A stretch of 64,000 nt of DNA, taken from contig NZ_JAHEHX010000002.1 of the NCBI RefSeq assembly GCF_024639685.1, positions 132,825 through 196,824 on the forward strand, given 5' to 3'. The notes under the pieces were generated by a model. The model was given only the letters and a program-made list of their open reading frames with translations. It was not told the DNA's origin and made no database searches. This stretch comes from Polaribacter sp. (lineage in GTDB: Bacteria > Bacteroidota > Bacteroidia > Flavobacteriales > Flavobacteriaceae). A program made the position numbers and the translations under genes. Positions 49,193 to 63,030 of the stretch are shown here, piece after piece. Position 1 is the first letter of the stretch. The number at the start of each line of letters is the position of its first letter.

Positions 49193-49903
49193 ATGAAGAA
49201 AATATTTACACTCCTTTTTGCGCTAATCTCTTTTTTAGAAGTGAAAGCGCAGACCTCTATCTTTTCTAATTTATTAGAAAAACACGTTACCAGTGAAGGT
49301 GTTGTAGACTATGCAGCATTTAAGGCTGATGAAGTTCGATTAGACATATACCTTACCTATTTAGAAAATACAAATCCAGATAAATCATGGTCTAAAAGTC
49401 AACAAAAAGCTTTTTGGATGAATGCTTACAATGCGTATACCATAAAATTGATTTTAGAGAACTACCCTATTAACTCGATTATGGATATTAAAAAAGATGG
49501 AAAATCGGCTTGGAAAATTCCATTTGCTAAAGTAGGTAGAAAAACTTACACCTTAAATTATATTGAACACGAAATATTGCGAAAACAACTTTTTGACCCT
49601 AGAATTCATGTGGGTGTAAACTGTGCATCTATCTCTTGCCCTAAAATTTTAAACAAAGTCTTTACTGCTGGAAATATAGATACTACTTTAGAAATATTAA
49701 TGAAAGAATTCATCAATGATTCTTCAAGAAATAAAATCGGGAAAAAGTACATACAAATCTCTTCTATTTTTGATTGGTTTCAGCAAGATTTCACAAAAAA
49801 CGGTAGTGTAATTGATTACTTAAACAACTATACAGAATTCAAAATTAACGCAAAAGCAAATATCTCATATTTGAAATACGATTGGGGTTTGAACAGTAAA
49901 TAA
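49193..49903 (+). CDS. DUF547 domain secreted protein
   Basis: Signal peptide, VDYAAF, AFWMNAYNA, IEHEILR, RIHVGVNCASISCP. Confidence 0.9.
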   Translation: MKKIFTLLFALISFLEVKAQTSIFSNLLEKHVTSEGVVDYAAFKADEVRLDIYLTYLENTNPDKSWSKSQQKAFWMNAYNAYTIKLILENYPINSIMDIKKDGKSAWKIPFAKVGRKTYTLNYIEHEILRKQLFDPRIHVGVNCASISCPKILNKVFTAGNIDTTLEILMKEFINDSSRNKIGKKYIQISSIFDWFQQDFTKNGSVIDYLNNYTEFKINAKANISYLKYDWGLNSK

Positions 49904-49938: not shown

Positions 49939-50274
49939 ATGTCTAAAACATATTATGATGATGCTGATTTGAGAAAATTCAGCAAAATTACAGAATGGAG
50001 TGAAGAATTAGGAAACAAGTTTTTCGATTATTATGGAAAAGTTTTTGAAGAAGGAGCATTAACTGCTCGTGAAAAATCATTAATAGCACTGGCTGTGGCG
50101 CATACAGAACAATGTCCTTATTGTATAGATGCCTATACAAAAGATGGCTTACAAAGAGGTATAACAAAACCAGAAATGATGGAAGCCATTCATGTGGGCG
50201 CTGCAATTAAAAGTGGTGCAACTTTGGTTCATGGAGTTCAAATGATGAACAAAGTGAACAAATTAGAAATGTAA
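49939..50274 (+). CDS. Arsenosugar-associated peroxidase-like protein (CMD/AhpD family)
   Basis: LTAREKSLIALAVA, CPYC; directly upstream of arsS. Confidence 0.88.
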   Translation: MSKTYYDDADLRKFSKITEWSEELGNKFFDYYGKVFEEGALTAREKSLIALAVAHTEQCPYCIDAYTKDGLQRGITKPEMMEAIHVGAAIKSGATLVHGVQMMNKVNKLEM

Positions 50275-50319: not shown

Positions 50320-50457
50320 ATACTCGCAAAAGCGAGTATCTATAAAACCAAACCATTATTTTCTTCAAACATAAATTAAAGAACCAAAAAAAAGATTCTG
50401 AATTAAATTCAGAATCATAATAAAAAATAAAAGTGATACTGAATCAAATTCAGCATG
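50320..50457. repeat. Three palindromes (two REP-like) upstream of arsS
   Basis: ATACTCGC-aaaa-GCGAGTAT 50320-50339; GATTCTGAATT-a-AATTCAGAATC 50394-50416; GATACTGAATCAAATTCAGCATG 50435-50457. Confidence 0.6.
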
Positions 50458-51507
50458 AAAAAATCATTAAAAGCCAGAAATAACGATATTGCCAATACTT
50501 CTCGTCAACTAGAAATCCTTTCCAACGGAATTTTTGCCGACGGTGAGTTGCCTACATTTGCAAAAAAGATTAAAGAAACCAACCAATTTCCGTTACGTCC
50601 AAAAAAATTAGAAATTCTTCAAATCAACTTGGGCTATATGTGCAATCAAGTATGTGAGCATTGTCATGTTGATGCTGGGCCAGACAGAAAAGAAATTATG
50701 ACTGTTGAAACGATGCAGCAATGCTTGGAGATTGTCAAAAAAACAAAGGCACATACCTTAGATTTAACTGGTGGTGCTCCTGAAATGAATCCTAATTTTA
50801 GATGGTTTGTAGAAGAAGCTTCTAAAGCAGGTATTAAAGATTTTATCGTACGTTCTAACCTAACCATTATCAGAGCGAACAAAAAATTTCACGATTTACC
50901 GGAATTCTTTAAAAAACACAATGTTCATATTGTGTCTTCTATGCCTCATTGGACACGTGGAAAGACAGATAAACAAAGAGGAGATGGTGTTTTTGATAAA
51001 TCGATTAAAGCCTTACAAGAACTAAATGCTGTGGGTTATGGAATGCCTGACTCTAATTTAAAACTAGACTTGGTATATAATCCTTCTGGTGCTTTTTTAC
51101 CTGGAGATCAACAAGCTTTAGAAGCTGAATTCAAAAAAGCATTGAAAGCTGATTTTGACATTCACTTTCATAGTCTTTTTGCCATTACAAATTTACCTAT
51201 AAGCAGGTTTTTAGATTACTTAATTGCCTCAGACAATTATGAAGATTATATGTATGCTTTACTAGATGCATACAATCCTGCAGCAGTAGAAAATGTAATG
51301 TGTACCAATACCATTTCTATTAGTTGGGAGGGTTGGCTGTATGACTGCGATTTTAACCAAATGCTTAACTTAAAAGTAGCCAGTAAAATTAAACACGTTT
51401 CTGACTATAATGAAGAATTGTTACAAGATAGAAACATAATTATAAACCAACATTGTTATGGGTGTACAGCAGGAGCAGGAAGTAGTTGCCAAGGAACTGT
51501 TGCCTAA
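50455..51507 (+). CDS. arsS: Arsenosugar biosynthesis radical SAM protein
   Basis: QINLGYMCNQVCEHCHV (CxxxCxxC), DLTGGAPEMNP, YDCDFNQ, C-terminal HCYGCTAGAGSSCQG. Confidence 0.93.
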   Translation: MKKSLKARNNDIANTSRQLEILSNGIFADGELPTFAKKIKETNQFPLRPKKLEILQINLGYMCNQVCEHCHVDAGPDRKEIMTVETMQQCLEIVKKTKAHTLDLTGGAPEMNPNFRWFVEEASKAGIKDFIVRSNLTIIRANKKFHDLPEFFKKHNVHIVSSMPHWTRGKTDKQRGDGVFDKSIKALQELNAVGYGMPDSNLKLDLVYNPSGAFLPGDQQALEAEFKKALKADFDIHFHSLFAITNLPISRFLDYLIASDNYEDYMYALLDAYNPAAVENVMCTNTISISWEGWLYDCDFNQMLNLKVASKIKHVSDYNEELLQDRNIIINQHCYGCTAGAGSSCQGTVA

Positions 51508-51524
51508 TTAAAAATATAAATATC

Positions 51525-52493
51525 ATGAGTTATTTAGAGACTACACACAACGTTTATAAAGAAGCAGCTTTAACTCCAGATGTGGGGTTATGTTGTACAA
51601 CAAATCCGATTTGGGAATTACCAGGACTAAAAATTCCTAGAATTATGCAAGAAATGAATTATGGTTGTGGCTCTACTGTTCATGCTAGAGATTTAACCAA
51701 TAACCCTAAAATGTTATATGTAGGAGTTGGAGGCGGAATGGAGTTATTACAATTTGCATATTTCAACAGAAATAAAGGTGGTGTTATTGGCTTAGATGTG
51801 GTTGATGAAATGTTAGAGGCATCTCGTAAAAACTTTAAAATTGCCGAAGAACAAAACGATTGGTTTCAAAGCAATTTTGTAGATCTAAGAAAAGGAGATG
51901 CCATGAATTTACCGGTTGAAGACAACTCCATTGATGTGGCTGCACAAAACTGTTTGTTTAATATTTTTAAATCTGACGATTTAAAAAAAGCAATTGCAGA
52001 AATGTATAGAGTATTAAAACCACATGGTCGTTTAGTGATGAGTGATCCTACTTGCGAACAACCAATGAATGATACTTTGCGAAACGATGAACGTTTGCGA
52101 GCGCTTTGTTTAAGTGGGAGTTTACCAATTGCTGACTATGTGAAAGTATTAACAGATGCTGGCTTTGGAACTATAGAAATAAGAGCAAGAAAACCATATC
52201 GAATTCTAGACCCAAAAAAATACCCTACAGAAGAATTAATTTACATAGAGTCTATTGAAGTTGCTGCTATTAAAGATCCAATGCCTTCAGATGGCCCTTG
52301 TATTTTTACTGGAAAAACAGCAATTTATTATGGTAATGAAGATTTTTTTGATGACAATGCAGGTCATGTATTGCTAAAAAATCAGCCTTTAGCTATTTGC
52401 GATAAAACTGCTGGTGTTCTTGCTGGTTTAGGCAGAACTGATATTTTTATCTCTGAAAGTACTTACCACTATGATGGAGGTGGATGTTGTTAA
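51525..52493 (+). CDS. arsM: Arsenite S-adenosylmethionine methyltransferase
   Basis: GLCCT, NYGCG, YVGVGGG SAM motif, AQNCLFN, ALCLSG, terminal GGCC; ATG 51525. Confidence 0.9.
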   Translation: MSYLETTHNVYKEAALTPDVGLCCTTNPIWELPGLKIPRIMQEMNYGCGSTVHARDLTNNPKMLYVGVGGGMELLQFAYFNRNKGGVIGLDVVDEMLEASRKNFKIAEEQNDWFQSNFVDLRKGDAMNLPVEDNSIDVAAQNCLFNIFKSDDLKKAIAEMYRVLKPHGRLVMSDPTCEQPMNDTLRNDERLRALCLSGSLPIADYVKVLTDAGFGTIEIRARKPYRILDPKKYPTEELIYIESIEVAAIKDPMPSDGPCIFTGKTAIYYGNEDFFDDNAGHVLLKNQPLAICDKTAGVLAGLGRTDIFISESTYHYDGGGCC

Positions 52494-52597: not shown

Positions 52598-53089
52598 ATG
52601 AAAAACCTTTTAATTCTTTTTTTAGTAATAAGTACAACTACGCTTGGACAAACAAAATTAGACAAACTTCTTTCTAAGTGGAACAAGAGAAATGTACCTT
52701 ACATATCAGTAGAAACACTGGCCTTACCTAAAACAAATGCAATTTTATTAGATGCTAGAGATCAAAGTGAATTTGATGTAAGTCATTTAAAAAATGCAGT
52801 TCGTGTAGGATATAATGATTTTAAATTAAAACAAACAATACTCAATTTACCAAAAGATAAAGATGTAAAAATTGTTGTGTATTGCTCATTGGGTATTCGC
52901 TCAGAAACTGTGGCACATAAATTAATGCAAGAAGGCTATACCAATATCTACAATTTATATGGAGGAATTTTTGAATGGAAAAATGCCAACTTTAAGGTGG
53001 TAGATACCTTAGGAAATCCCACAGAAAAAGTACATACATTCAACAAAAGTTGGAGCAAATGGCTTCATAGAGGAAAGAAAGTGTATTAA
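52598..53089 (+). CDS. Secreted rhodanese-like domain protein
   Basis: Signal peptide, LLDAR..EFDVSHL, YCSLGIRS, NLYGGIFEW. Confidence 0.88.
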   Translation: MKNLLILFLVISTTTLGQTKLDKLLSKWNKRNVPYISVETLALPKTNAILLDARDQSEFDVSHLKNAVRVGYNDFKLKQTILNLPKDKDVKIVVYCSLGIRSETVAHKLMQEGYTNIYNLYGGIFEWKNANFKVVDTLGNPTEKVHTFNKSWSKWLHRGKKVY

Positions 53090-53199: not shown

Positions 53200-53814
53200 A
53201 TGCACAAAAACCTTCTACTTATTTTTACCAGAAACCCTGAATTAGGTAAAGTAAAAACGCGCTTGGCAAAAACAGTTGGCGATGAAACTGCTTTAGAAAT
53301 CTATAAATTTCTCCTAGAAAAGACTAGAGATGAGTCGCGTAATGTAAACGCTGACAAAGCTGTTTACTACTCTGTAAAAGTGAGAGACAATGATATTTGG
53401 AATGCTGAAACCTATCAAAAATTTACTCAAAAAGGCGAAGATTTAGGGTATAGAATGCAGTATGCCTTTGAGCAAGGATTTAAAACGGGTTATGAAAAAG
53501 TGCTAATCATTGGTAGCGATTTATATGATTTATCCTCAGAAAATATAGATTATGCTTTTCGTACATTAGACAATCATGATGTAGTTCTAGGGCCAGCAGA
53601 AGATGGTGGTTATTACTTATTAGGCATGAAGACCTTACATGCATCTGTTTTTCATAATAAAGAATGGGGTACATCCACAGTTCAAAAAGACACCTTAGCC
53701 AATTTAACCCATCAAAAGGTAAAATTATTAGAAACTAAAAATGATATAGATTTGTATGAGGATATTGAAGGCATCCCAGAAATTATGAATCGCTTTATCC
53801 ATACTAAAAAATAA
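53200..53814 (+). CDS. TIGR04282-type (DUF2064) arsenosugar-associated transferase
   Basis: IFTRNPELGKVKTRLA, LIIGSD, LGPAEDGGYYLLG, DID. Confidence 0.9.
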   Translation: MHKNLLLIFTRNPELGKVKTRLAKTVGDETALEIYKFLLEKTRDESRNVNADKAVYYSVKVRDNDIWNAETYQKFTQKGEDLGYRMQYAFEQGFKTGYEKVLIIGSDLYDLSSENIDYAFRTLDNHDVVLGPAEDGGYYLLGMKTLHASVFHNKEWGTSTVQKDTLANLTHQKVKLLETKNDIDLYEDIEGIPEIMNRFIHTKK

Positions 53815-53830
53815 AATACATTTGCGCATT

Positions 53831-54646
53831 ATGAAAGCAGCACAGTTACAAGAAACCATCACTTTTTTAAAAGAACAAGGCATCACTGCTCCAGAGGTAG
53901 GTATTGTATTAGGTACTGGTTTAGGAAAACTGGTAAACAAAATAGAAATCGTAAAAGAGATTGCGTATACAGATATTCCTAACTTTCCTATTGCTACAGT
54001 AGAATTTCATTCAGGTAGAATTATCTACGGAAAATTATCTGGTAAAATGGTTGTGGTGATGTCTGGGCGTTTTCATTTATATGAAGGATATACGCCTTGG
54101 GAGGTTACCTATGGTATACGAACCATGCATGGCTTAGGCATTCAGCATTTATTAATTTCTAATGCAGCAGGTGCTATTAACTTAGATTATACCAAAGGCG
54201 ATTTAATGTTGATTGAAGATCATATTAATCTACAAGGCAGTTCCCCTTTAGCTTTTAAAGGCGCTAATGAATTCGGAAACATCTTTGCAGATATGCTTGA
54301 ACCCTATTCAAAAAAGATGAATACAGCACTGAATTTAATTGCTACCGAAAATAACATTCAACTGCATACAGGAACGTATGCAAGTGTATTAGGGCCACAG
54401 TTAGAAACTAAAGCCGAATATAGAATGTTGCAAATTTTAGAGGTAGATGCAGTAGGCATGAGTACTGTACCAGAAGTAATTGTGGCCAAGCAATTGAATT
54501 TACCTTGTGCAGCTATTTCTGTATTAACAGATGAATGTGATCCTAAGAATTTACAACCTGTAGACATTGCTGAAATTATTGCTATTGCTGGCCAAGCAGA
54601 ACCTAAAATGATTATACTATTCAAAGAGGTGCTAGCTAAGTTGTAA
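53831..54646 (+). CDS. Purine nucleoside phosphorylase (trimeric class) with Asp at the base-specificity position
   Basis: [37 protein letters not shown]; ATG 53831. Confidence 0.92.
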
Positions 54647-54668: not shown

Positions 54669-55628
54669 ATGAACCACAGCTTTACATCTTTTATTTTAGA
54701 AAAAACAGGCGCTACTTCTTTACAAGAAGTGGAGCTCATTCAAGAATTATGGAGTGGCTATGGGTACATTAAGCGCTTTGCCTTAGAAGGTAGCCCTTTG
54801 AAAACTGTGGTGGTTAAAAATGTACGATACCCAAAACAACAGCAACACCCAAGAGGTTGGAACTCCCAATTTGGTCATGAACGCAAGTTAAAATCTTATC
54901 AAGTGGAAACAGCTTGGTACACCCAATATGCACAACACAGCAAAGCACGTTTGCCCAAATGTTATGGTATTCGTCAACAAAATAACGAAGTGTGTATTGT
55001 TCTAGAAGATTTAGATGCTGCTGGTTACACATATCGAAAACAAGATGTTTCTTGGCAAGGAATTGACAACTGCTTGGCATGGCTTGCCAATTTTCATGCA
55101 TCTTATTTAGGGCAAACCCCTGAAAATTTATGGGCTATTGGTAGCTACTGGCATTTGGCTACAAGACCGCAAGAATTAGCAGTTTTAGCAGATGCTCCTT
55201 TAAAAAAAGCAGCACCCTTCATCGATCAGAAATTAAACGATTGCAAGTATACAACCTTTATTCATGGAGATGCAAAATTGGCCAACTTTTGTTTTTCTGC
55301 CAATGATGAAGTAGCCGGTGTTGATTTTCAATATGTTGGTGGTGGTTGTGGTATAAAAGATGTTGCCTATTTTATCGGTAGCTGCTTACCAGAGCAAGAA
55401 TGCGAACGTTTAGAAGCCGATATTCTTACCACCTATTTTACGCATTTGCATGCAGCCTTAGACACAGAACACAAAGCATTAGAAAAAGAATGGCGTACTT
55501 TATACCCTTATGCTTGGGCAGATTTTCATCGTTTTTTAAAAGGATGGAGTCCTGGGCATTGGAAACTAAATTCGTATAGCGAACGTATCACGCAACAGGT
55601 AATTATAGAACTTTCTAATGGACTTTAA
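54669..55628 (+). CDS. Small-molecule phosphotransferase (APH/choline/ecdysteroid kinase-like)
   Basis: [31 protein letters not shown]. Confidence 0.85.
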
Positions 55629-56436
55629 CGTATTGGCAAAAATTGCTTCAAAGGCTGTTCTAGAAGCAGGTAAGGTAATACAGAATGCCTTACATAAACC
55701 TATTGAAGTACAACATAAGGAAGGTGGCAACACCTTAGCATCACAAGTAGTTACTGCTATAGATGTAGCCTGTGAAAAAGTAATTCTAAAACACTTAGCA
55801 CCTACTTGTATAAAGTACGATCTTGGGTTGTTGACGGAAGAAACCGAAGACGACCAAAGCCGATTTACCAAAGACTATTTTTGGTGTATAGACCCTTTAG
55901 ATGGCACATTGCCCTTTATTAAGAAACATCCAGGCTTTTCGGTTTCCATAGCACTAGTCTCTAAAGAAGGTATTCCAGTAATTGGAGTAGTTTTAGACCC
56001 TACAAATAGTACCTTATATGTGGGCATAAAAGACCAAGGTGCGTTTAAAAATGGAAAAACTTGGGAGTTACCTCAACCCAAAAATACACTTACATTCGTT
56101 AGCGATAAAACCTTAGCAAACACCCCACAAAAAGAACAAATTTTAGGGCATATTGAAAAGCATTTAGAAGAATTGGGTTTAACACAATTTAAGGAAGTTT
56201 CAGGTGGTGGAGCTGTGTTGAATGCCCTTTTAGTAGCTGAACACAGACCAGCACTACTCATAAAACCTACCAAATTAGCACTTGGAGGTGGAAGCCTATG
56301 GGATTTTGCAGCAACTGTTTGTATTTTTAGTGAATTGGATTTAAAAGCCACATCATATAACGGTAATCCTTTAGATTTGAACTCTAAAACTAGCACATTT
56401 TTAAATACACAAGGGGTATATTTTTATTCTTTTTAA
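55618..56436 (+). CDS. Inositol monophosphatase/CysQ-family phosphatase
   Basis: [18 protein letters not shown]; overlaps kinase stop by 11 nt. Confidence 0.9.
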
Positions 56437-56494
56437 GAATTAATTAGACTTTTCTTAAAGACAATTATTGCTTTTTGTATATTTGTTAAATACA

Positions 56495-57382
56495 ATGAAC
56501 AAGTATTTAAACATTATAAAAAACTCGTATTCAGGATACTGGAACTACCTGAAAAACTCCGTTTTGCTGGAGTTAAATTGGGAGAATTACTTTTATGGGT
56601 TACTAATTATTTCTTTTGTAGTTTGGGGTCTAGAAGCTATGTTTCCTTGGCGTAAAAACCAATCTTTGTTTCGTAAAGATTTTTGGTTGGATACCTTTTA
56701 CATGTTCTTTAACTTTTTTCTATTAAATCTTATTGTTTTAATTGCTTTATCCAACACTGCAGCCGAAATCTTTAATGATTTGTTAGGGTTTATCGGTTTA
56801 ACTATAAGTAGTTTTCAGTTGCTAGATTTAAATATCCTACCTTTTTTACTACGTATCTTTATTTTCTTTATTGTAGTCGATTTTACTCAATGGTGGACGC
56901 ATCGTTTACTGCATAGAGTCGATTTTTTATGGAATTTTCATAAAGTACATCACTCCGTAAAAGAGATGGGCTTTGCAGCCCACTTGCGTTACCACTGGAT
57001 GGAACCTGTAATTTACAATTCGTTGCGCTATATTCCGCTTGCCATTATTGGCGGGTTTTCTCCACAAGATGTTGGTATTGTTCATTTCTTTAACATTACT
57101 ATTGGACATCTTAACCATGCAAATATTAATTGGGATTATGGATGGTTAAAATATATTTTAAACAATCCAAAAATGCACATTTGGCATCATGCTAAAGAGT
57201 TGCCTAAAGACCATAAGCATGGGGTGAATTTTGCACTAACCTTGAGTGTTTGGGACTACTTATTCAAAACCAATTATATTCCTTATTCAGGAAGAGATAT
57301 TGAACTTGGTTTTGAAGATGATTCGAGCTTTCCAAAAAATTTTGTGCAACAGGAATTCTATCCATTAAGTAAAAGTAAATAG
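56495..57382 (+). CDS. Fatty acid hydroxylase/sterol desaturase family membrane di-iron enzyme
   Basis: WTHRLLH, HKVHHS, HLNH, HIWHH His boxes; own TATATTTG box at 56478-56485. Confidence 0.9.
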   Translation: MNKYLNIIKNSYSGYWNYLKNSVLLELNWENYFYGLLIISFVVWGLEAMFPWRKNQSLFRKDFWLDTFYMFFNFFLLNLIVLIALSNTAAEIFNDLLGFIGLTISSFQLLDLNILPFLLRIFIFFIVVDFTQWWTHRLLHRVDFLWNFHKVHHSVKEMGFAAHLRYHWMEPVIYNSLRYIPLAIIGGFSPQDVGIVHFFNITIGHLNHANINWDYGWLKYILNNPKMHIWHHAKELPKDHKHGVNFALTLSVWDYLFKTNYIPYSGRDIELGFEDDSSFPKNFVQQEFYPLSKSK

Positions 57383-59208: not shown

Positions 59209-60558
59209 ATGGAACATATTGTAATTATTGGAAATGGAATTTCTGGAGTTACAGCTGCAAGACATATCAGAAAAAATTCTGACAAACAGATTACTATTGT
59301 CTCTGCTGAAACCAAATACTTTTTTTCTAGAACAGCACTCATGTACGTGTACATGGGACATATGAAATTTGAACATACTCAACCTTACGAAAATTGGTTT
59401 TGGGATAAGAATAACATCAACTTAAAAGAAGGGTATGTAACGCAGGTAAACACTGATGATAAGTTACTAAGTTTTAAAGACAACTCTACTTTATCCTATG
59501 ATAAACTAATCATAGCTACAGGTTCTAAACCCAATAAATTTGGCTGGCCAGGAGAGGATTTAAAAGGAGTTTTAGGCATGTACCACAAACAAGATCTAGA
59601 AAACTTAGAAATCTATGCTCCTAATAAAGAAGTGTGTAAAAGAGCAGTAATTGTTGGTGGTGGTTTAATAGGAATTGAATTGGCAGAAATGCTAAGAAGT
59701 AGAGACATACCTGTTACCTTTTTGGTACGTGAAAGTAGTTTTTGGAATGAGGTTTTACCTGCCCAAGAATCTGAAATGATTAATAAACATATTTTAGAAC
59801 ATCACATAGACCTGCGATTAAGCACTCATTTAAAAGAGATAAAATCTGATGAAAACGGAAATGTAAAGTCTGTTGTTATCGAAGAAACTGGCGAAGAAAT
59901 ACCTTGTAATGTACTAGGTTTAACTGCAGGGGTTTCACCAAACATCAACTTTTTAAAAGATTCTGGAATAGAGACTAAAAAAGGTGTTTTGGTAAACCGA
60001 TTTCTAGAAACCAATATAAAAGATGTTTATGCGATTGGTGATTGTGCAGAGCAAAACGAAGCTATTGGTCTACGAAGAAATATTGAAGCTATTTGGTACA
60101 CAGGAAGAATGATGGGTGAAACATTAGCACAAACTATTTGTGGAAAACCTAGAGAGTACAACCCTGGACATTGGTTTAACTCCGCTAAATTTTTAGACAT
60201 TGAATACCAAACCTATGGTTGGGTATTTAGCGAGAGAAATAAAAAAAAGTATGAAACCTATTTTCAGTGGAAACATTCCAAACAAAATAGTTGCATTACC
60301 ATTTCTTACGATGCTAAAACTCAACAATTTTTAGGGATAAATACCTTCGGAATTCGAATGCGTCACGAGAAATTTAATCAATGGTTAACCGAAAAACAAT
60401 CTATACAATATGTTTTAAAGCATTTAAAAGATGCTAATTTTGATCCTGAATTTTATAGCTTATACGAAAAACAAATTATAGCCAAATTCAACATAGAAAA
60501 CAATACACAACTAAGAGTAAAACCAAAAAGTTGGAAGCGTATATTTTCTAAAATATAA
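59209..60558 (+). CDS. NAD(P)/FAD-dependent oxidoreductase (pyridine nucleotide-disulfide/rubredoxin reductase-like)
   Basis: IGNGISG, IIATGS, VGGGLIG, YAIGDCAE. Confidence 0.9.
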   Translation: MEHIVIIGNGISGVTAARHIRKNSDKQITIVSAETKYFFSRTALMYVYMGHMKFEHTQPYENWFWDKNNINLKEGYVTQVNTDDKLLSFKDNSTLSYDKLIIATGSKPNKFGWPGEDLKGVLGMYHKQDLENLEIYAPNKEVCKRAVIVGGGLIGIELAEMLRSRDIPVTFLVRESSFWNEVLPAQESEMINKHILEHHIDLRLSTHLKEIKSDENGNVKSVVIEETGEEIPCNVLGLTAGVSPNINFLKDSGIETKKGVLVNRFLETNIKDVYAIGDCAEQNEAIGLRRNIEAIWYTGRMMGETLAQTICGKPREYNPGHWFNSAKFLDIEYQTYGWVFSERNKKKYETYFQWKHSKQNSCITISYDAKTQQFLGINTFGIRMRHEKFNQWLTEKQSIQYVLKHLKDANFDPEFYSLYEKQIIAKFNIENNTQLRVKPKSWKRIFSKI

Positions 60559-60584
60559 ATCATACACCTTAAAAAACAGATTCT

Positions 60585-62207
60585 TTGAAAATTTTACAAC
60601 AATTAGGCTTAACCGTTTTTCTAATAGCTCTTTTGCTATTTACATCGAGTATTTTTACAGGTAATTTTTCCATGAAACAGAAAGACTTTGATGCTTTTTT
60701 GACTGAAAAAAACTATAAAAGCGAACATTTTACTGAAGCTTTACAAAAAGCTATTGTAACACCAGAACCCTTGTCTATATTTGAATTTTCTAAAAGAGTT
60801 AGACAAGCTGTTGCTGATAATAACGCTTATTACAATACTCTAATTAAAAAATACAATGCAGAGAAAAACTGGAAGAAAAAAGGAGCTCAATATCAATATA
60901 AAATTAACGGCAAACCACATAGCATTAGTTTTGAAATTGCTAAAAAAGCAGGTAATGGATTTGTAAAAGAAAATGCAGGACTTAGCTGGCTGCTTACCTT
61001 TGGGCTCGGTATTGTTGGAGCACTGCTTTTTATACTACCTAACATTATTTTATTAGGAAAGCCAGGTATTAAAAATAATCATATTTATCAGCAATCTGCA
61101 ACCAACAGAGGTTTTATGGCTTGGTTGGTTTTAGTATACCTCGTCGTTTTTTACTTAGTACTCTATTTTATGGCAGACTATTTAGTAAATTGGACCTTTA
61201 TGCTAGACCCAATAAGCAAGGCTCTAAATGGAGGACCTGCTTCACAATGGTTTGTTTATGGTTTTCTATATTGTACTATTATGCTAACCATGGGGGTTAG
61301 AATGTATATTAAATACAGACACAACAAATACCAAATTATTAGAACAACCTCGGTACTATTCTTTCAAATTGTTTTTGCTTTTCTTATTCCGGAAATTATG
61401 ACCAGCTTAAACATGCCAGGTTATGATTTTAAAAATGCGTTTCCTCTAGACTATGATTTCTTTTTTGAATGGAATTTAAAAAGCTTAACCGAAAGTGGTG
61501 GTATAGGTATTTTTATTCTAGTTTGGGGTATTGTATTAACTTTAATCATTGTGCCAGTTATGGTATACTTCTTTGGTAAAAGATGGTATTGTTCTTGGGT
61601 TTGTGGTTGTGGTGGATTAGCTGAAACTTTGGGCGACCCTTACAGACAACATTCTAACAAAAGCTTAAGTGCATGGAAGTTAGAACGCTGGTTAATACAC
61701 TCAGTATTGGTTTTTTCTTTAGTAATGACTTTAGTAACCTTGTATTGTTATTTTTCTGGAACTTCTTATTTTTTAGGTATAAAGTCGCAATGGATTAAAG
61801 ATACATACAGCTTTTTAATAGGTGCATGGTTTGCAGGTGTTATTGGTACAGGCTTCTACCCAATTTTTGGAAATAGAGTGTGGTGTAGATTTGGTTGTCC
61901 ATTGGCTGCTTATTTAGGTTTAGTGCAACGTTTTAAATCGAGATTTAGAATTACCACCAATGGCGGGCAGTGTATTTCTTGTGGAAACTGTTCTACATAC
62001 TGTGAACAAGGAATTGATGTAAGAGCCTATGCACAAAAAGGAGAAAACATTGTAAGATCTAGCTGTGTAGGTTGTGGAATTTGTTCTGCTGTGTGTCCTA
62101 GAGGAGTGCTGAAATTAGAAAATGGCCCTGAAGAAGGCAGAATTAATCCTACTGAAATTTTGTTAGGGAATGATGTTGACTTAATGCAATTGGTAAATAA
62201 AAAATAG
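60585..62207 (+). CDS. Membrane polyferredoxin (4Fe-4S binding, NapH/RdxA-like)
   Basis: Many TM helices, WYCSWVCGCG, WCRFGCP, CISCGNCSTYC, CVGCGICSAVCP; TTG start. Confidence 0.9.
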   Translation: MKILQQLGLTVFLIALLLFTSSIFTGNFSMKQKDFDAFLTEKNYKSEHFTEALQKAIVTPEPLSIFEFSKRVRQAVADNNAYYNTLIKKYNAEKNWKKKGAQYQYKINGKPHSISFEIAKKAGNGFVKENAGLSWLLTFGLGIVGALLFILPNIILLGKPGIKNNHIYQQSATNRGFMAWLVLVYLVVFYLVLYFMADYLVNWTFMLDPISKALNGGPASQWFVYGFLYCTIMLTMGVRMYIKYRHNKYQIIRTTSVLFFQIVFAFLIPEIMTSLNMPGYDFKNAFPLDYDFFFEWNLKSLTESGGIGIFILVWGIVLTLIIVPVMVYFFGKRWYCSWVCGCGGLAETLGDPYRQHSNKSLSAWKLERWLIHSVLVFSLVMTLVTLYCYFSGTSYFLGIKSQWIKDTYSFLIGAWFAGVIGTGFYPIFGNRVWCRFGCPLAAYLGLVQRFKSRFRITTNGGQCISCGNCSTYCEQGIDVRAYAQKGENIVRSSCVGCGICSAVCPRGVLKLENGPEEGRINPTEILLGNDVDLMQLVNKK

Positions 62208-62337
62208 AGTTCACTTAACAAAGACTTCATAATTTATTTAACATAAAAGTCTTATAAGTATAAAATATTGATACTTTTACTGCCAAAAAATAATTGCAAG
62301 CGAATATTTTAATAAAAATAACATCGATTTTAGTAAA

Positions 62338-63030
62338 ATGAATACCTTAGTTACCGTAATTATCCCTGCATACAACGAGCAAGATGCTATTACTAAAGTC
62401 ATACAAGATATCCCCGAATTTGTAAATGAAATTATTGTTGTAAGCAATAACTCTACAGACAACACTGAAGAAAAGGCAAAAAAAGCAGGTGCAACAGTAT
62501 TACAGGAACAAAGAAAAGGATACGGGTATGCCTGTTTAAAAGGGCTACATTATATTGTACAGCAAAATACAAAACCAGAAATCATTGTATTCTTAGATGG
62601 AGATTACTCTGATTATCCAGAACAGTTAACCGAAATTATTACACCTATACTGCAAGAAAACATTGACTTTGTATTAGGTTCACGTGTAAAAGAATTGAGA
62701 GAAGTAGGTGCAATGACACCACAACAAATTTTCGGAAATTGGTTAGCTACTTTTTTAATGAAGGTGTTTTTTAATGCCCAATTTACAGATCTAGGGCCCT
62801 TTAGAGCTATAAAATACTCAAAACTATTAACGTTAGGAATGGAGGACAAAACGTATGGGTGGACTGTAGAAATGCAGCTAAAGATTTTAAAACAAAAAAT
62901 GAGTTATAGAGAACTACCTGTAAAGTATCGAAACAGAATTGGAGTTTCAAAAGTTTCAGGAACTTTAAAAGGTACTATATTTGCAGGAGTTAAAATTCTT
63001 AGCTGGATTTTTAAATATAGTTTTAAGTAA
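62338..63030 (+). CDS. GT2 glycosyltransferase, polyprenol-phosphate glycosyltransferase (DPM1-like)
   Basis: VIIPAYNE, GYGYAC, FLDGDYSD, LGSR, TDLGPFRAI. Confidence 0.88.
   Translation: MNTLVTVIIPAYNEQDAITKVIQDIPEFVNEIIVVSNNSTDNTEEKAKKAGATVLQEQRKGYGYACLKGLHYIVQQNTKPEIIVFLDGDYSDYPEQLTEIITPILQENIDFVLGSRVKELREVGAMTPQQIFGNWLATFLMKVFFNAQFTDLGPFRAIKYSKLLTLGMEDKTYGWTVEMQLKILKQKMSYRELPVKYRNRIGVSKVSGTLKGTIFAGVKILSWIFKYSFK

Follow-up and report, generated by a model that had tools for sequence, protein, structure and literature searches.

A purine nucleoside phosphorylase among arsenosugar genes

The window analyzed here, a 64,000-nt stretch of Polaribacter DNA with a GC content of 32%, encodes on its forward strand (positions 53831 to 54646) a trimeric-type purine nucleoside phosphorylase (PNP) of 271 amino acids, which is recognized by the family models NF006054 and TIGR01697 and is distinguished by Asp, Ile and Leu at three active-site positions. 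The gene lies in a cluster that is predicted, from family-model assignments, to produce arsenosugars. Upstream on the same strand are the genes for ArsS, the radical S-adenosylmethionine (SAM) enzyme producing 5'-deoxy-5'-dimethylarsinoyladenosine (DDMAA), here in its Cys form (50455 to 51507; TIGR04167, 439.9 bits against a cutoff of 300), and for the arsenosugar-type arsenite methyltransferase ArsM, which ends at 52493 (NF038099, 578 bits against a cutoff of 400). When read from a TTG at 51486, the ArsM open reading frame (ORF) overlaps the end of ArsS; an ATG at 51525, 17 bp past the ArsS stop, is the likelier start because the NF038099 alignment begins at residue 15. Immediately before the PNP gene, also on the forward strand, is a TIGR04282/DUF2064 gene (53200 to 53814; 216.6 bits against a cutoff of 134), whose product is CofC-like (CofC match, 1.5e-8) and has a nucleotide-diphospho-sugar transferase fold (match at E 5e-28 to PDB 3cgx, which is annotated as a putative enzyme of this kind).

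Only 16 bp separate the TIGR04282 gene from the PNP gene and 22 bp the PNP gene from the kinase gene that follows it, with all of these genes on one strand, and such short gaps around the PNP gene argue for co-transcription. The RNA runs available for this question were only unrelated riverine metatranscriptomes, with 0.00 of words in common. A scan for sigma-70 promoters and terminators returned fewer promoter-like sites than were found in shuffled sequence; Bacteroidota use other promoters. Family searches of 46 of the 48 window ORFs of at least 90 amino acids (the two unscanned ones have 117 and 110) yielded no second gene of the PNP family.

A TTG at 53822 is a less likely start for the PNP because its homologues have 271 amino acids, and the product is 97% identical to its P. 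dokdonensis counterpart. The protein scores above the cutoffs of NF006054 (312.4 bits; cutoff, 218) and TIGR01697 (261.3 bits; cutoff, 197.1). It stays below the cutoff of TIGR01700, the equivalog model of the inosine/guanosine-specific PNPH (257.3 bits; cutoff, 293.35), and far below that of TIGR01694, the equivalog model of methylthioadenosine phosphorylase (MTAP) (97.7 bits; cutoff, 274.85). The phosphate, ribose and catalytic motifs of PNPs can all be aligned (Ser/Thr33, His64, Arg84, His86, Tyr88, Ala116 to Gly118, Glu201, Met219-Ser220 and Thr242), Glu being kept at the E201 position and VGMSTVPE being present. The window PNP thus appears, from its sequence, to be a catalytically intact enzyme of the trimeric type.

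Among solved structures, the closest matches are 4LNA, the PNP I of Spirosoma linguale (E 1.9e-83; 50% identity, TM score 0.96), 8SWT of Bacteroides fragilis (46% identity, TM score 0.95) and 8SWU of Clostridium perfringens. They are accompanied by 4M1E of Planctomyces limnophilus (E 4.2e-65; 41 to 42% identity, TM score 0.94 to 0.96) and human PNP (E ~1e-57; ~39% identity, with a near-identical core and motifs). An AlphaFold2 monomer model built on a 38-sequence alignment reached a predicted local distance difference test score (pLDDT) of 93.6 and a predicted TM score (pTM) of 0.92. It took the place of a single-sequence model that was unusable, with a pLDDT of 36.7. Superposed on 4LNA, 4M1E, 8SWT and human PNP, the alignment-based model gives TM scores of 0.92 to 0.96, which assigns the protein to the PNP fold.

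Three active-site substitutions

The sequence-only reading that preceded this analysis had pointed to an Asp encoded by GAT at 54530 to 54532, in the motif VLT-D-EC, had placed it at the position of Asn243 of human PNP and had noted that MTAP has Asp there as well. All of this was borne out. The coordinates are exact, and the codon is number 234 of the 271-residue ORF on the forward strand. A HMMER alignment to PDB chains sets Asp234 opposite human Asn243 in a stretch that is ungapped from an invariant motif (ISVLTD against FSLITN). BLASTP against human MTAP (27% identity; the sequence used is 100% identical to 1cb0_A) sets the same residue opposite Asp220. In the AlphaFold2 model, Asp234 ends the strand 226 to 235 and Ile246 starts the C-terminal helix, which are the places of Asn243 and His257 in human PNP.

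Two further changes, beyond those noticed earlier, emerged from the alignments. His257, the ligand of the 5'-OH in human PNP, is replaced by Ile246 (ATT, 54566 to 54568, forward strand; also supported by the model), opposite Val233 of MTAP, and Phe200 by Leu191 (TTA, 54401 to 54403, forward strand), opposite Phe177 of MTAP. In the BLASTP alignment with MTAP, Ile246, Ile249 and Ile250 stand opposite Val233, Val236 and Leu237. The pair Asn243 and His257 of inosine/guanosine PNPs is therefore absent, with Asp234 and Ile246 in its place, and the protein carries the two residue features of MTAP, a base-position Asp and a hydrophobic 5' pocket.

The consequences of such changes can be gauged from work on the human enzymes. 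The double mutant E201Q:N243D of human PNP cleaves adenosine analogues, whereas the wild type does not (PMC2799393). According to published work, His257 of human PNP forms a hydrogen bond with O5', and the preference of MTAP for 5'-deoxy and 5'-substituted nucleosides has been ascribed to a hydrophobic site without hydrogen-bond partners (PMC5147791). Taken together, the changes from Asn243 to Asp, from His257 to a hydrophobic residue and from Phe200 to Leu point to an MTAP-like pocket in a PNP scaffold, which should accept adenine nucleosides without a 5'-OH. Such a reading, an adenine-type base and no need for a 5'-OH, goes further than Asp alone would allow.

Comparison with individual enzymes situates the variant more precisely. 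The structures 4LNA and 4M1E share its Asp at the N243 position, its Leu at the F200 position (GPxLET) and its CxP loop, and they have Leu at the H257 position. Unlike the TDECDP of the window PNP, the loop of this type reads TDLCFP or TDLCLP. Both structures are structural-genomics entries for which we found no published function. The B. fragilis PNP 8SWT, likewise trimeric and with Asp at the N243 position, differs in keeping His at the H257 and Phe at the F200 position. The engineered human variant E201Q:N243D (3GGS, 3GB9) has Asp at the 243 position as well, but the window PNP retains Glu at E201 and also replaces His257 and Phe200. With human MTAP (1CB0), which is specific for 5'-substituted adenosines (PMC5147791), it shares the fold superfamily, the base-position Asp and hydrophobic residues where PNP has its 5'-OH ligand. 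In contrast to MTAP (GRQHTI, GPRFSS), it keeps the PNP-type motifs RFHxYEGY and GPxxET with Glu201. The window PNP is thus a protein of the PNP clade that converges on MTAP-like determinants.

Linkage of the phosphorylase to arsenosugar genes

A scan for ArsS with one genome per species gave 80 Bacteroidota loci, with ArsS identities of 63 to 92%. A PNP gene was found within 10 kb of ArsS in 55 of these loci, on the same strand in all but one (54/55). TIGR04282 accompanies it in 53 loci and is no more than 300 bp away in 49 of them; ArsM is that close in 38 loci. The usual order is peroxidase-like gene, ArsS, rhodanese, TIGR04282, PNP, ArsM, fatty-acid hydroxylase and DUF547. The TIGR04282-PNP pair is intact even where the block lies 8 to 9 kb from ArsS (L007, L021, L024, L028, L042 and L044), and also in the inverted block of L078. 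The identity of the cluster PNPs falls to 48%, and the linkage spans more than 20 genera of Flavobacteriaceae. Such a linkage reflects selection and not residual synteny, and a functional connection of the PNP to the arsenosugar genes in Flavobacteriaceae is well supported.

In all 52 full-length cluster PNPs, the N243 position is occupied by Asp and the Phe200 position by Leu, while His257 is replaced by Ile, Leu or Val. The motif SV[LI]TD[ED]CDPxxL is conserved among them.

A proposed role in the de-adenylation of DDMAA

In marine algae, arsenic is present mainly as arsenosugars, which are also an important source of arsenic in the diet; the removal of adenine and the glycosidation in their synthesis were postulated decades ago. 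Enzymes have been assigned only for the first steps: ArsM makes dimethylarsenite, and ArsS joins the 5'-deoxyadenosyl group of SAM to dimethylarsenite to give DDMAA (PMC8552651, PMC13598754). Our literature search turned up no enzyme that has been given the task of removing adenine from DDMAA or of glycosidation, and no paper linking a PNP to arsenosugar synthesis or to DDMAA phosphorolysis.

The explanation that we favor, with a probability of roughly 0.5, is that an adenine-accepting, 5'-OH-independent PNP was recruited into the operon, where it phosphorolyses DDMAA and feeds the TIGR04282 protein. From the observed residues, alignments and conserved gene linkage, we infer the following course. 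A PNP of the subfamily would have been captured into the arsenosugar operon in Flavobacteriaceae. The window PNP would convert DDMAA and phosphate into adenine and 5-deoxy-5-dimethylarsinoyl-alpha-D-ribose-1-phosphate, and the adjacent TIGR04282 protein, with its CofC-like nucleotidyl/glycosyl-transferase fold, would then take up the sugar-1-phosphate. The arsenoribose would finally be transferred to an acceptor, giving beta-ribosides. A sugar-1-phosphate is a natural substrate for a CofC-like protein or one of the nucleotide-diphospho-sugar transferase type, and the loss of the 5'-OH-binding His257 is in keeping with a substrate that is a 5'-substituted adenosine, as DDMAA is. Any exclusivity for DDMAA would go beyond these observations, and the PNP may also serve in the general salvage of adenosine, 5'-deoxyadenosine or 5'-methylthioadenosine (MTA).

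A comparable sequence of reactions is found in hopanoid synthesis, where the radical SAM enzyme HpnH transfers an adenosyl group and the PNP homologue HpnG removes the adenine; the loss of HpnG leads to the accumulation of adenosylhopane, while the phosphorolytic product of HpnG was not observed (PMC13459092). In both systems, a 5'-deoxyadenosyl transfer by a radical SAM enzyme, here ArsS, would be followed by an enzyme of the PNP superfamily encoded in the same cluster, and by analogy this precedent makes the de-adenylation logic credible. ArsS itself is a weak match to HpnH, and HpnG presumably belongs to a different branch of the PNP/UDP superfamily from the window PNP.

An operon-embedded phosphorylase with an adenine-type, 5'-OH-independent pocket offers a concrete and directly testable candidate for the missing de-adenylation. 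If it yields a sugar-1-phosphate, this also hints at the function of the neighboring TIGR04282 protein.

Distribution of the signature and alternative explanations

Among the nearest family representatives at 50% identity (n = 134), 35 have Asp and 97 have Asn at the N243 position, which makes Asp the less common state without making it rare. Chance is the wrong yardstick for the Asp of the cluster PNPs because their 52 copies form one clade. When the three positions were scored together in 127 family representatives (in the order N243, H257, F200), 49 showed Asn, His and Phe or Tyr; 19, Asn, a hydrophobic residue and a Leu-type residue; 18, Asp, a hydrophobic residue and a Leu-type residue; and 9, Asp, His and Phe or Tyr. 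A rough neighbor-joining tree places the cluster PNPs in a single clade, next to other proteins with Asp, a hydrophobic residue and Leu.

It is important to consider the observations that weigh against the proposed role. The same signature occurs in PNPs encoded in housekeeping neighborhoods: those of Spirosoma pulveris and Emticicia (4LNA type) are stand-alone genes, the Planctomycete-type PNP (4M1E type) sits between aspS and a rhamnosidase gene, the Rhodothermales PNP (TDMCDPDDLKPVSI) has divIVA on one side and ileS on the other, and that of Rubricoccaceae (TDECVP) follows divIVA. Within the 6- to 10-kb flanks of these genes, no ArsS, ArsM or TIGR04282 was found. Furthermore, the PNP of B. 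fragilis (Asp, His, Phe) was crystallized with immucillin-H, an inosine analogue, and Asp alone therefore does not exclude 6-oxopurines. We found no residue that every cluster PNP has and every non-cluster PNP lacks. The nearest to this are E235 and D237, yet the loops of non-cluster relatives read TDMCDP (P0164), TDECDP (P0128) and TDECVP (P0125). In addition, some 17 of the 80 ArsS loci, each with the full 10 kb downstream, have no PNP (among them Maribacter, Muricauda/Flagellimonas, Arenibacter, Pseudozobellia, a Vicingaceae metagenome-assembled genome and Adhaeribacter), and the Pontibacter cluster consists of CMD, ArsS and ArsM only.

These results show that the Asp is not a cluster-specific adaptation and that the signature marks a wider PNP subfamily. 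The sequence-only reading had taken the Asp as the mark of a dedicated DDMAA phosphorylase, and on this point it does not hold, since the signature is shared with housekeeping PNPs that have no ArsS nearby. Its broader proposal, a role in the de-adenylation of DDMAA, survives as a reasonable candidate on the strength of the conserved operon membership and the three MTAP-like pocket changes. For annotation, the Asp and Ile substitutions alone should not be used to call a DDMAA phosphorylase.

A set of residues considered as a possible cluster signature (K122, S138, A141, G144, E235, D237, P243 and V244) was rejected, as it only separates the Flavobacteriaceae copies from those of Spirosomataceae. 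The cluster PNPs of L073 and L079 keep the canonical loop NPLxGxN...RFPDMS, and several of the separating residues recur in non-cluster relatives. None of the long PNP-containing representatives is fused to DUF2064, ArsS or ArsM. Natural fusions among the nearest representatives (P0181, P0184, P0205 and P0124) are of other kinds: PNP-DeoC, phosphopentomutase-PNP and proteins with three PNP repeats in ~850 amino acids. In Bacteroidales, an Asp-type PNP with His and Tyr retained is flanked by lpxK and a metallophosphoesterase gene. Metallophosphoesterase genes recur beside Asp-type PNPs, in the order lpxK-PNP-Metallophos in Bacteroidales (L081 to L083) and Metallophos-PNP in L088.

No substitute nucleosidase was found in the PNP-less clusters of Muricauda (L011), Maribacter (L019), Pontibacter (L094) and Rapidithrix (L095). 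In such genomes, either a PNP encoded elsewhere might act, for which the stand-alone Cytophagales PNPs might serve, or another enzyme might do so. Among relatives of a Cytophagales ArsS, the best 120 come from Hymenobacteraceae and Rapidithrix only, and they are uninformative on an absence of ArsS from genomes with the stand-alone Spirosomataceae PNPs. The Maribacter locus (L019:8734-9939) encodes a fusion of the ArsS-associated AhpD/CMD domain with a Metallophos domain.

The gene of P0128 (L086:5770-6983, L087:2210-3423), a PNP that branches just outside the cluster clade, overlaps by 4 bp the start of a downstream 137-amino-acid DUF2064/TIGR04282 fragment, and no ArsS or ArsM lies within 5.8 to 8 kb of it on its 15-kb contig. 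The locus may represent a minimal module of PNP and DUF2064, or else a remnant, and the adjacency fits the proposed hand-over from the PNP to TIGR04282.

The housekeeping contexts, the lack of a cluster-specific active-site residue and the many ArsS clusters without a neighboring PNP all speak for a general salvage phosphorylase of adenosine, 5'-deoxyadenosine or MTA, a role that the whole subfamily would share. Such an enzyme would clear by-products derived from SAM, for instance 5'-deoxyadenosine from abortive cleavage by ArsS, and would recycle adenine while leaving the arsenical unprocessed. For a scavenger one would expect a location next to the radical SAM gene, or at any site of the genome, but the tightest partner of the PNP is TIGR04282 (under 300 bp in 49 of 53 loci) and not ArsS. 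Moreover, a pocket made for 5'-deoxyadenosine or MTA probably takes DDMAA too, so that this alternative shades into the explanation that we favor; as a separate account we regard it as possible but doubtful. Considerably less probable is that the gene is an ordinary inosine/guanosine PNP that came to lie beside the cluster by an accident of synteny. Its generic annotation as a purine-nucleoside phosphorylase agrees with this, but an accident would hardly be kept across more than 20 genera, at PNP identities down to 48% and despite rearrangements, and the protein falls under the TIGR01700 cutoff with both Asn243 and His257 replaced. We consider it very unlikely.

Two other alternatives give the PNP a different chemistry. 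It could supply As(III) to ArsM through the arsenolysis of nucleosides to ribose-1-arsenate, which thiols would reduce to arsenite. With a dithiol present, mammalian PNP does reduce arsenate in vitro (work reviewed in PMC12608789), and the operon contains proteins of a thiol or redox type (rhodanese, AhpD-like and disulfide oxidoreductase). The in vivo relevance of the reaction is doubtful according to the same review (PMC12608789), and arsenolysis needs no change in base or 5' specificity and leaves both the Asp/Ile/Leu signature and the TIGR04282 linkage unexplained, all of which makes this a highly improbable account. Alternatively, the subfamily may natively cleave nucleosides of the (amino)futalosine type, or another product of radical SAM adenosylation, the arsenosugar role being secondary. 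This possibility arises from P0142, an Asn-type PNP without His257 whose gene lies 34 bp downstream of mqnC (TIGR03699, 442.6 bits against a cutoff of 428.1). It is, however, a single locus; no mqn genes were found beside the Asp-type members examined or among the window ORFs scanned, and the conserved order TIGR04282-PNP-ArsM would stay unexplained. We judge it improbable, if somewhat less so than the two accounts just rejected most firmly. P0142 itself, from one metagenomic locus (L097:6825-8831), has Ile at the His257 position and passes the TIGR01700 cutoff with 309.8 bits; it could be a phosphorolytic replacement for the futalosine hydrolase MqnB.

The recruitment of an adenine-accepting PNP for DDMAA, which remains our preferred explanation, can also be extended into a broader and more speculative scheme that we hold to be rather unlikely as a whole. 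Trimeric PNPs without His257 would constitute an unrecognized class that removes the base from products of radical SAM adenosylation, the Asp form acting on DDMAA in ArsS operons and, in other settings, perhaps on aminofutalosine; futalosine would be the substrate of the Asn form beside mqnC. The energy of the glycosidic bond would be kept in arsenoribose-1-phosphate, which TIGR04282 would activate with a nucleotide for an inverting glycosyltransferase of family GT2. An inverting GT2 enzyme acting on a nucleoside-diphosphate alpha-sugar would yield a beta-riboside, and natural arsenosugars are beta-ribosides. If the scheme is true, the glycosidic energy is conserved as 5-dimethylarsinoyl-ribose-1-phosphate, adenine is not merely discarded, and the beta-riboside configuration of natural arsenosugars is explained.

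Other genes of the cluster and of the window

The remaining genes of the cluster are all on the forward strand. It begins with a DUF547 protein (49193 to 49903; Pfam PF04784), which recurs in many ArsS loci, and an arsenosugar-associated peroxidase-like protein of the AhpD/CMD family (49939 to 50274; TIGR04169, 189.5 bits against a cutoff of 120), whose gene immediately precedes ArsS in nearly all of the 80 loci. Between ArsM and TIGR04282 is a rhodanese-domain protein of the "near glycosyltransferase" subfamily (52598 to 53089; NF045521, 204.3 bits against a cutoff of 145), with the six-residue active-site loop CSLGIR of the sulfurtransferase type. The DUF547 protein (MKKIFTLLFALISFLEVKAQ...) and the rhodanese (MKNLLILFLVISTTTLGQ...) have hydrophobic N-termini resembling signal peptides, which suggests that part of the system may work outside the cytoplasm.

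Downstream of the PNP, a small-molecule kinase of the EcKL/APH family (54669 to 55628; Pfam PF02958 and PF01636) and an overlapping phosphatase of the CysQ/inositol-monophosphatase family (55618 to 56436; TIGR01331, 108 bits, under the cutoff) are inserted (54669 to 56436) before the gene for a membrane protein of the fatty-acid-hydroxylase family (56468 to 57382; Pfam PF04116). This last protein is a recurrent cluster member, with copies of 61 to 78% identity in many loci. Besides the window, tblastn matches to the kinase/phosphatase insertion were found only in Polaribacter porphyrae (L001), and the pair is a lineage-specific addition to the cluster.

A module on the forward strand (59209 to 63030), which follows the cluster in many genomes, combines a pyridine-nucleotide-disulfide oxidoreductase with a NapH-like 4Fe-4S membrane protein and a small GT2 protein. 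It also accompanies the arsenosugar genes in L030, L051, L055, L058, L069, L078 and L095. In the last of these, from Rapidithrix, it stands directly upstream of DUF2064-CMD-ArsS, the order being Fer4-GT2-GT2-DUF2064-CMD-ArsS. As a candidate for the arsenosugar glycosyltransferase TIGR04283, the window GT2 (62338 to 63030) fails, with 38.9 bits against a cutoff of 182; it resembles polyprenyl- and dolichyl-phosphate sugar transferases (AglJ, DPM).

The first 47,300 nt of the window (1 to 47300) hold ordinary Flavobacteriaceae housekeeping genes, with no second nucleoside phosphorylase or nucleosidase among them. They encode a tRNA-adenosine-deaminase-like protein, Dxs, T9SS-tailed proteins, NrdAB, CtaA, MoaE, malic enzyme/PTA, RuvA, a 2272-amino-acid SprA, heme o synthase, cytochrome oxidase subunits, LeuRS and FabD.

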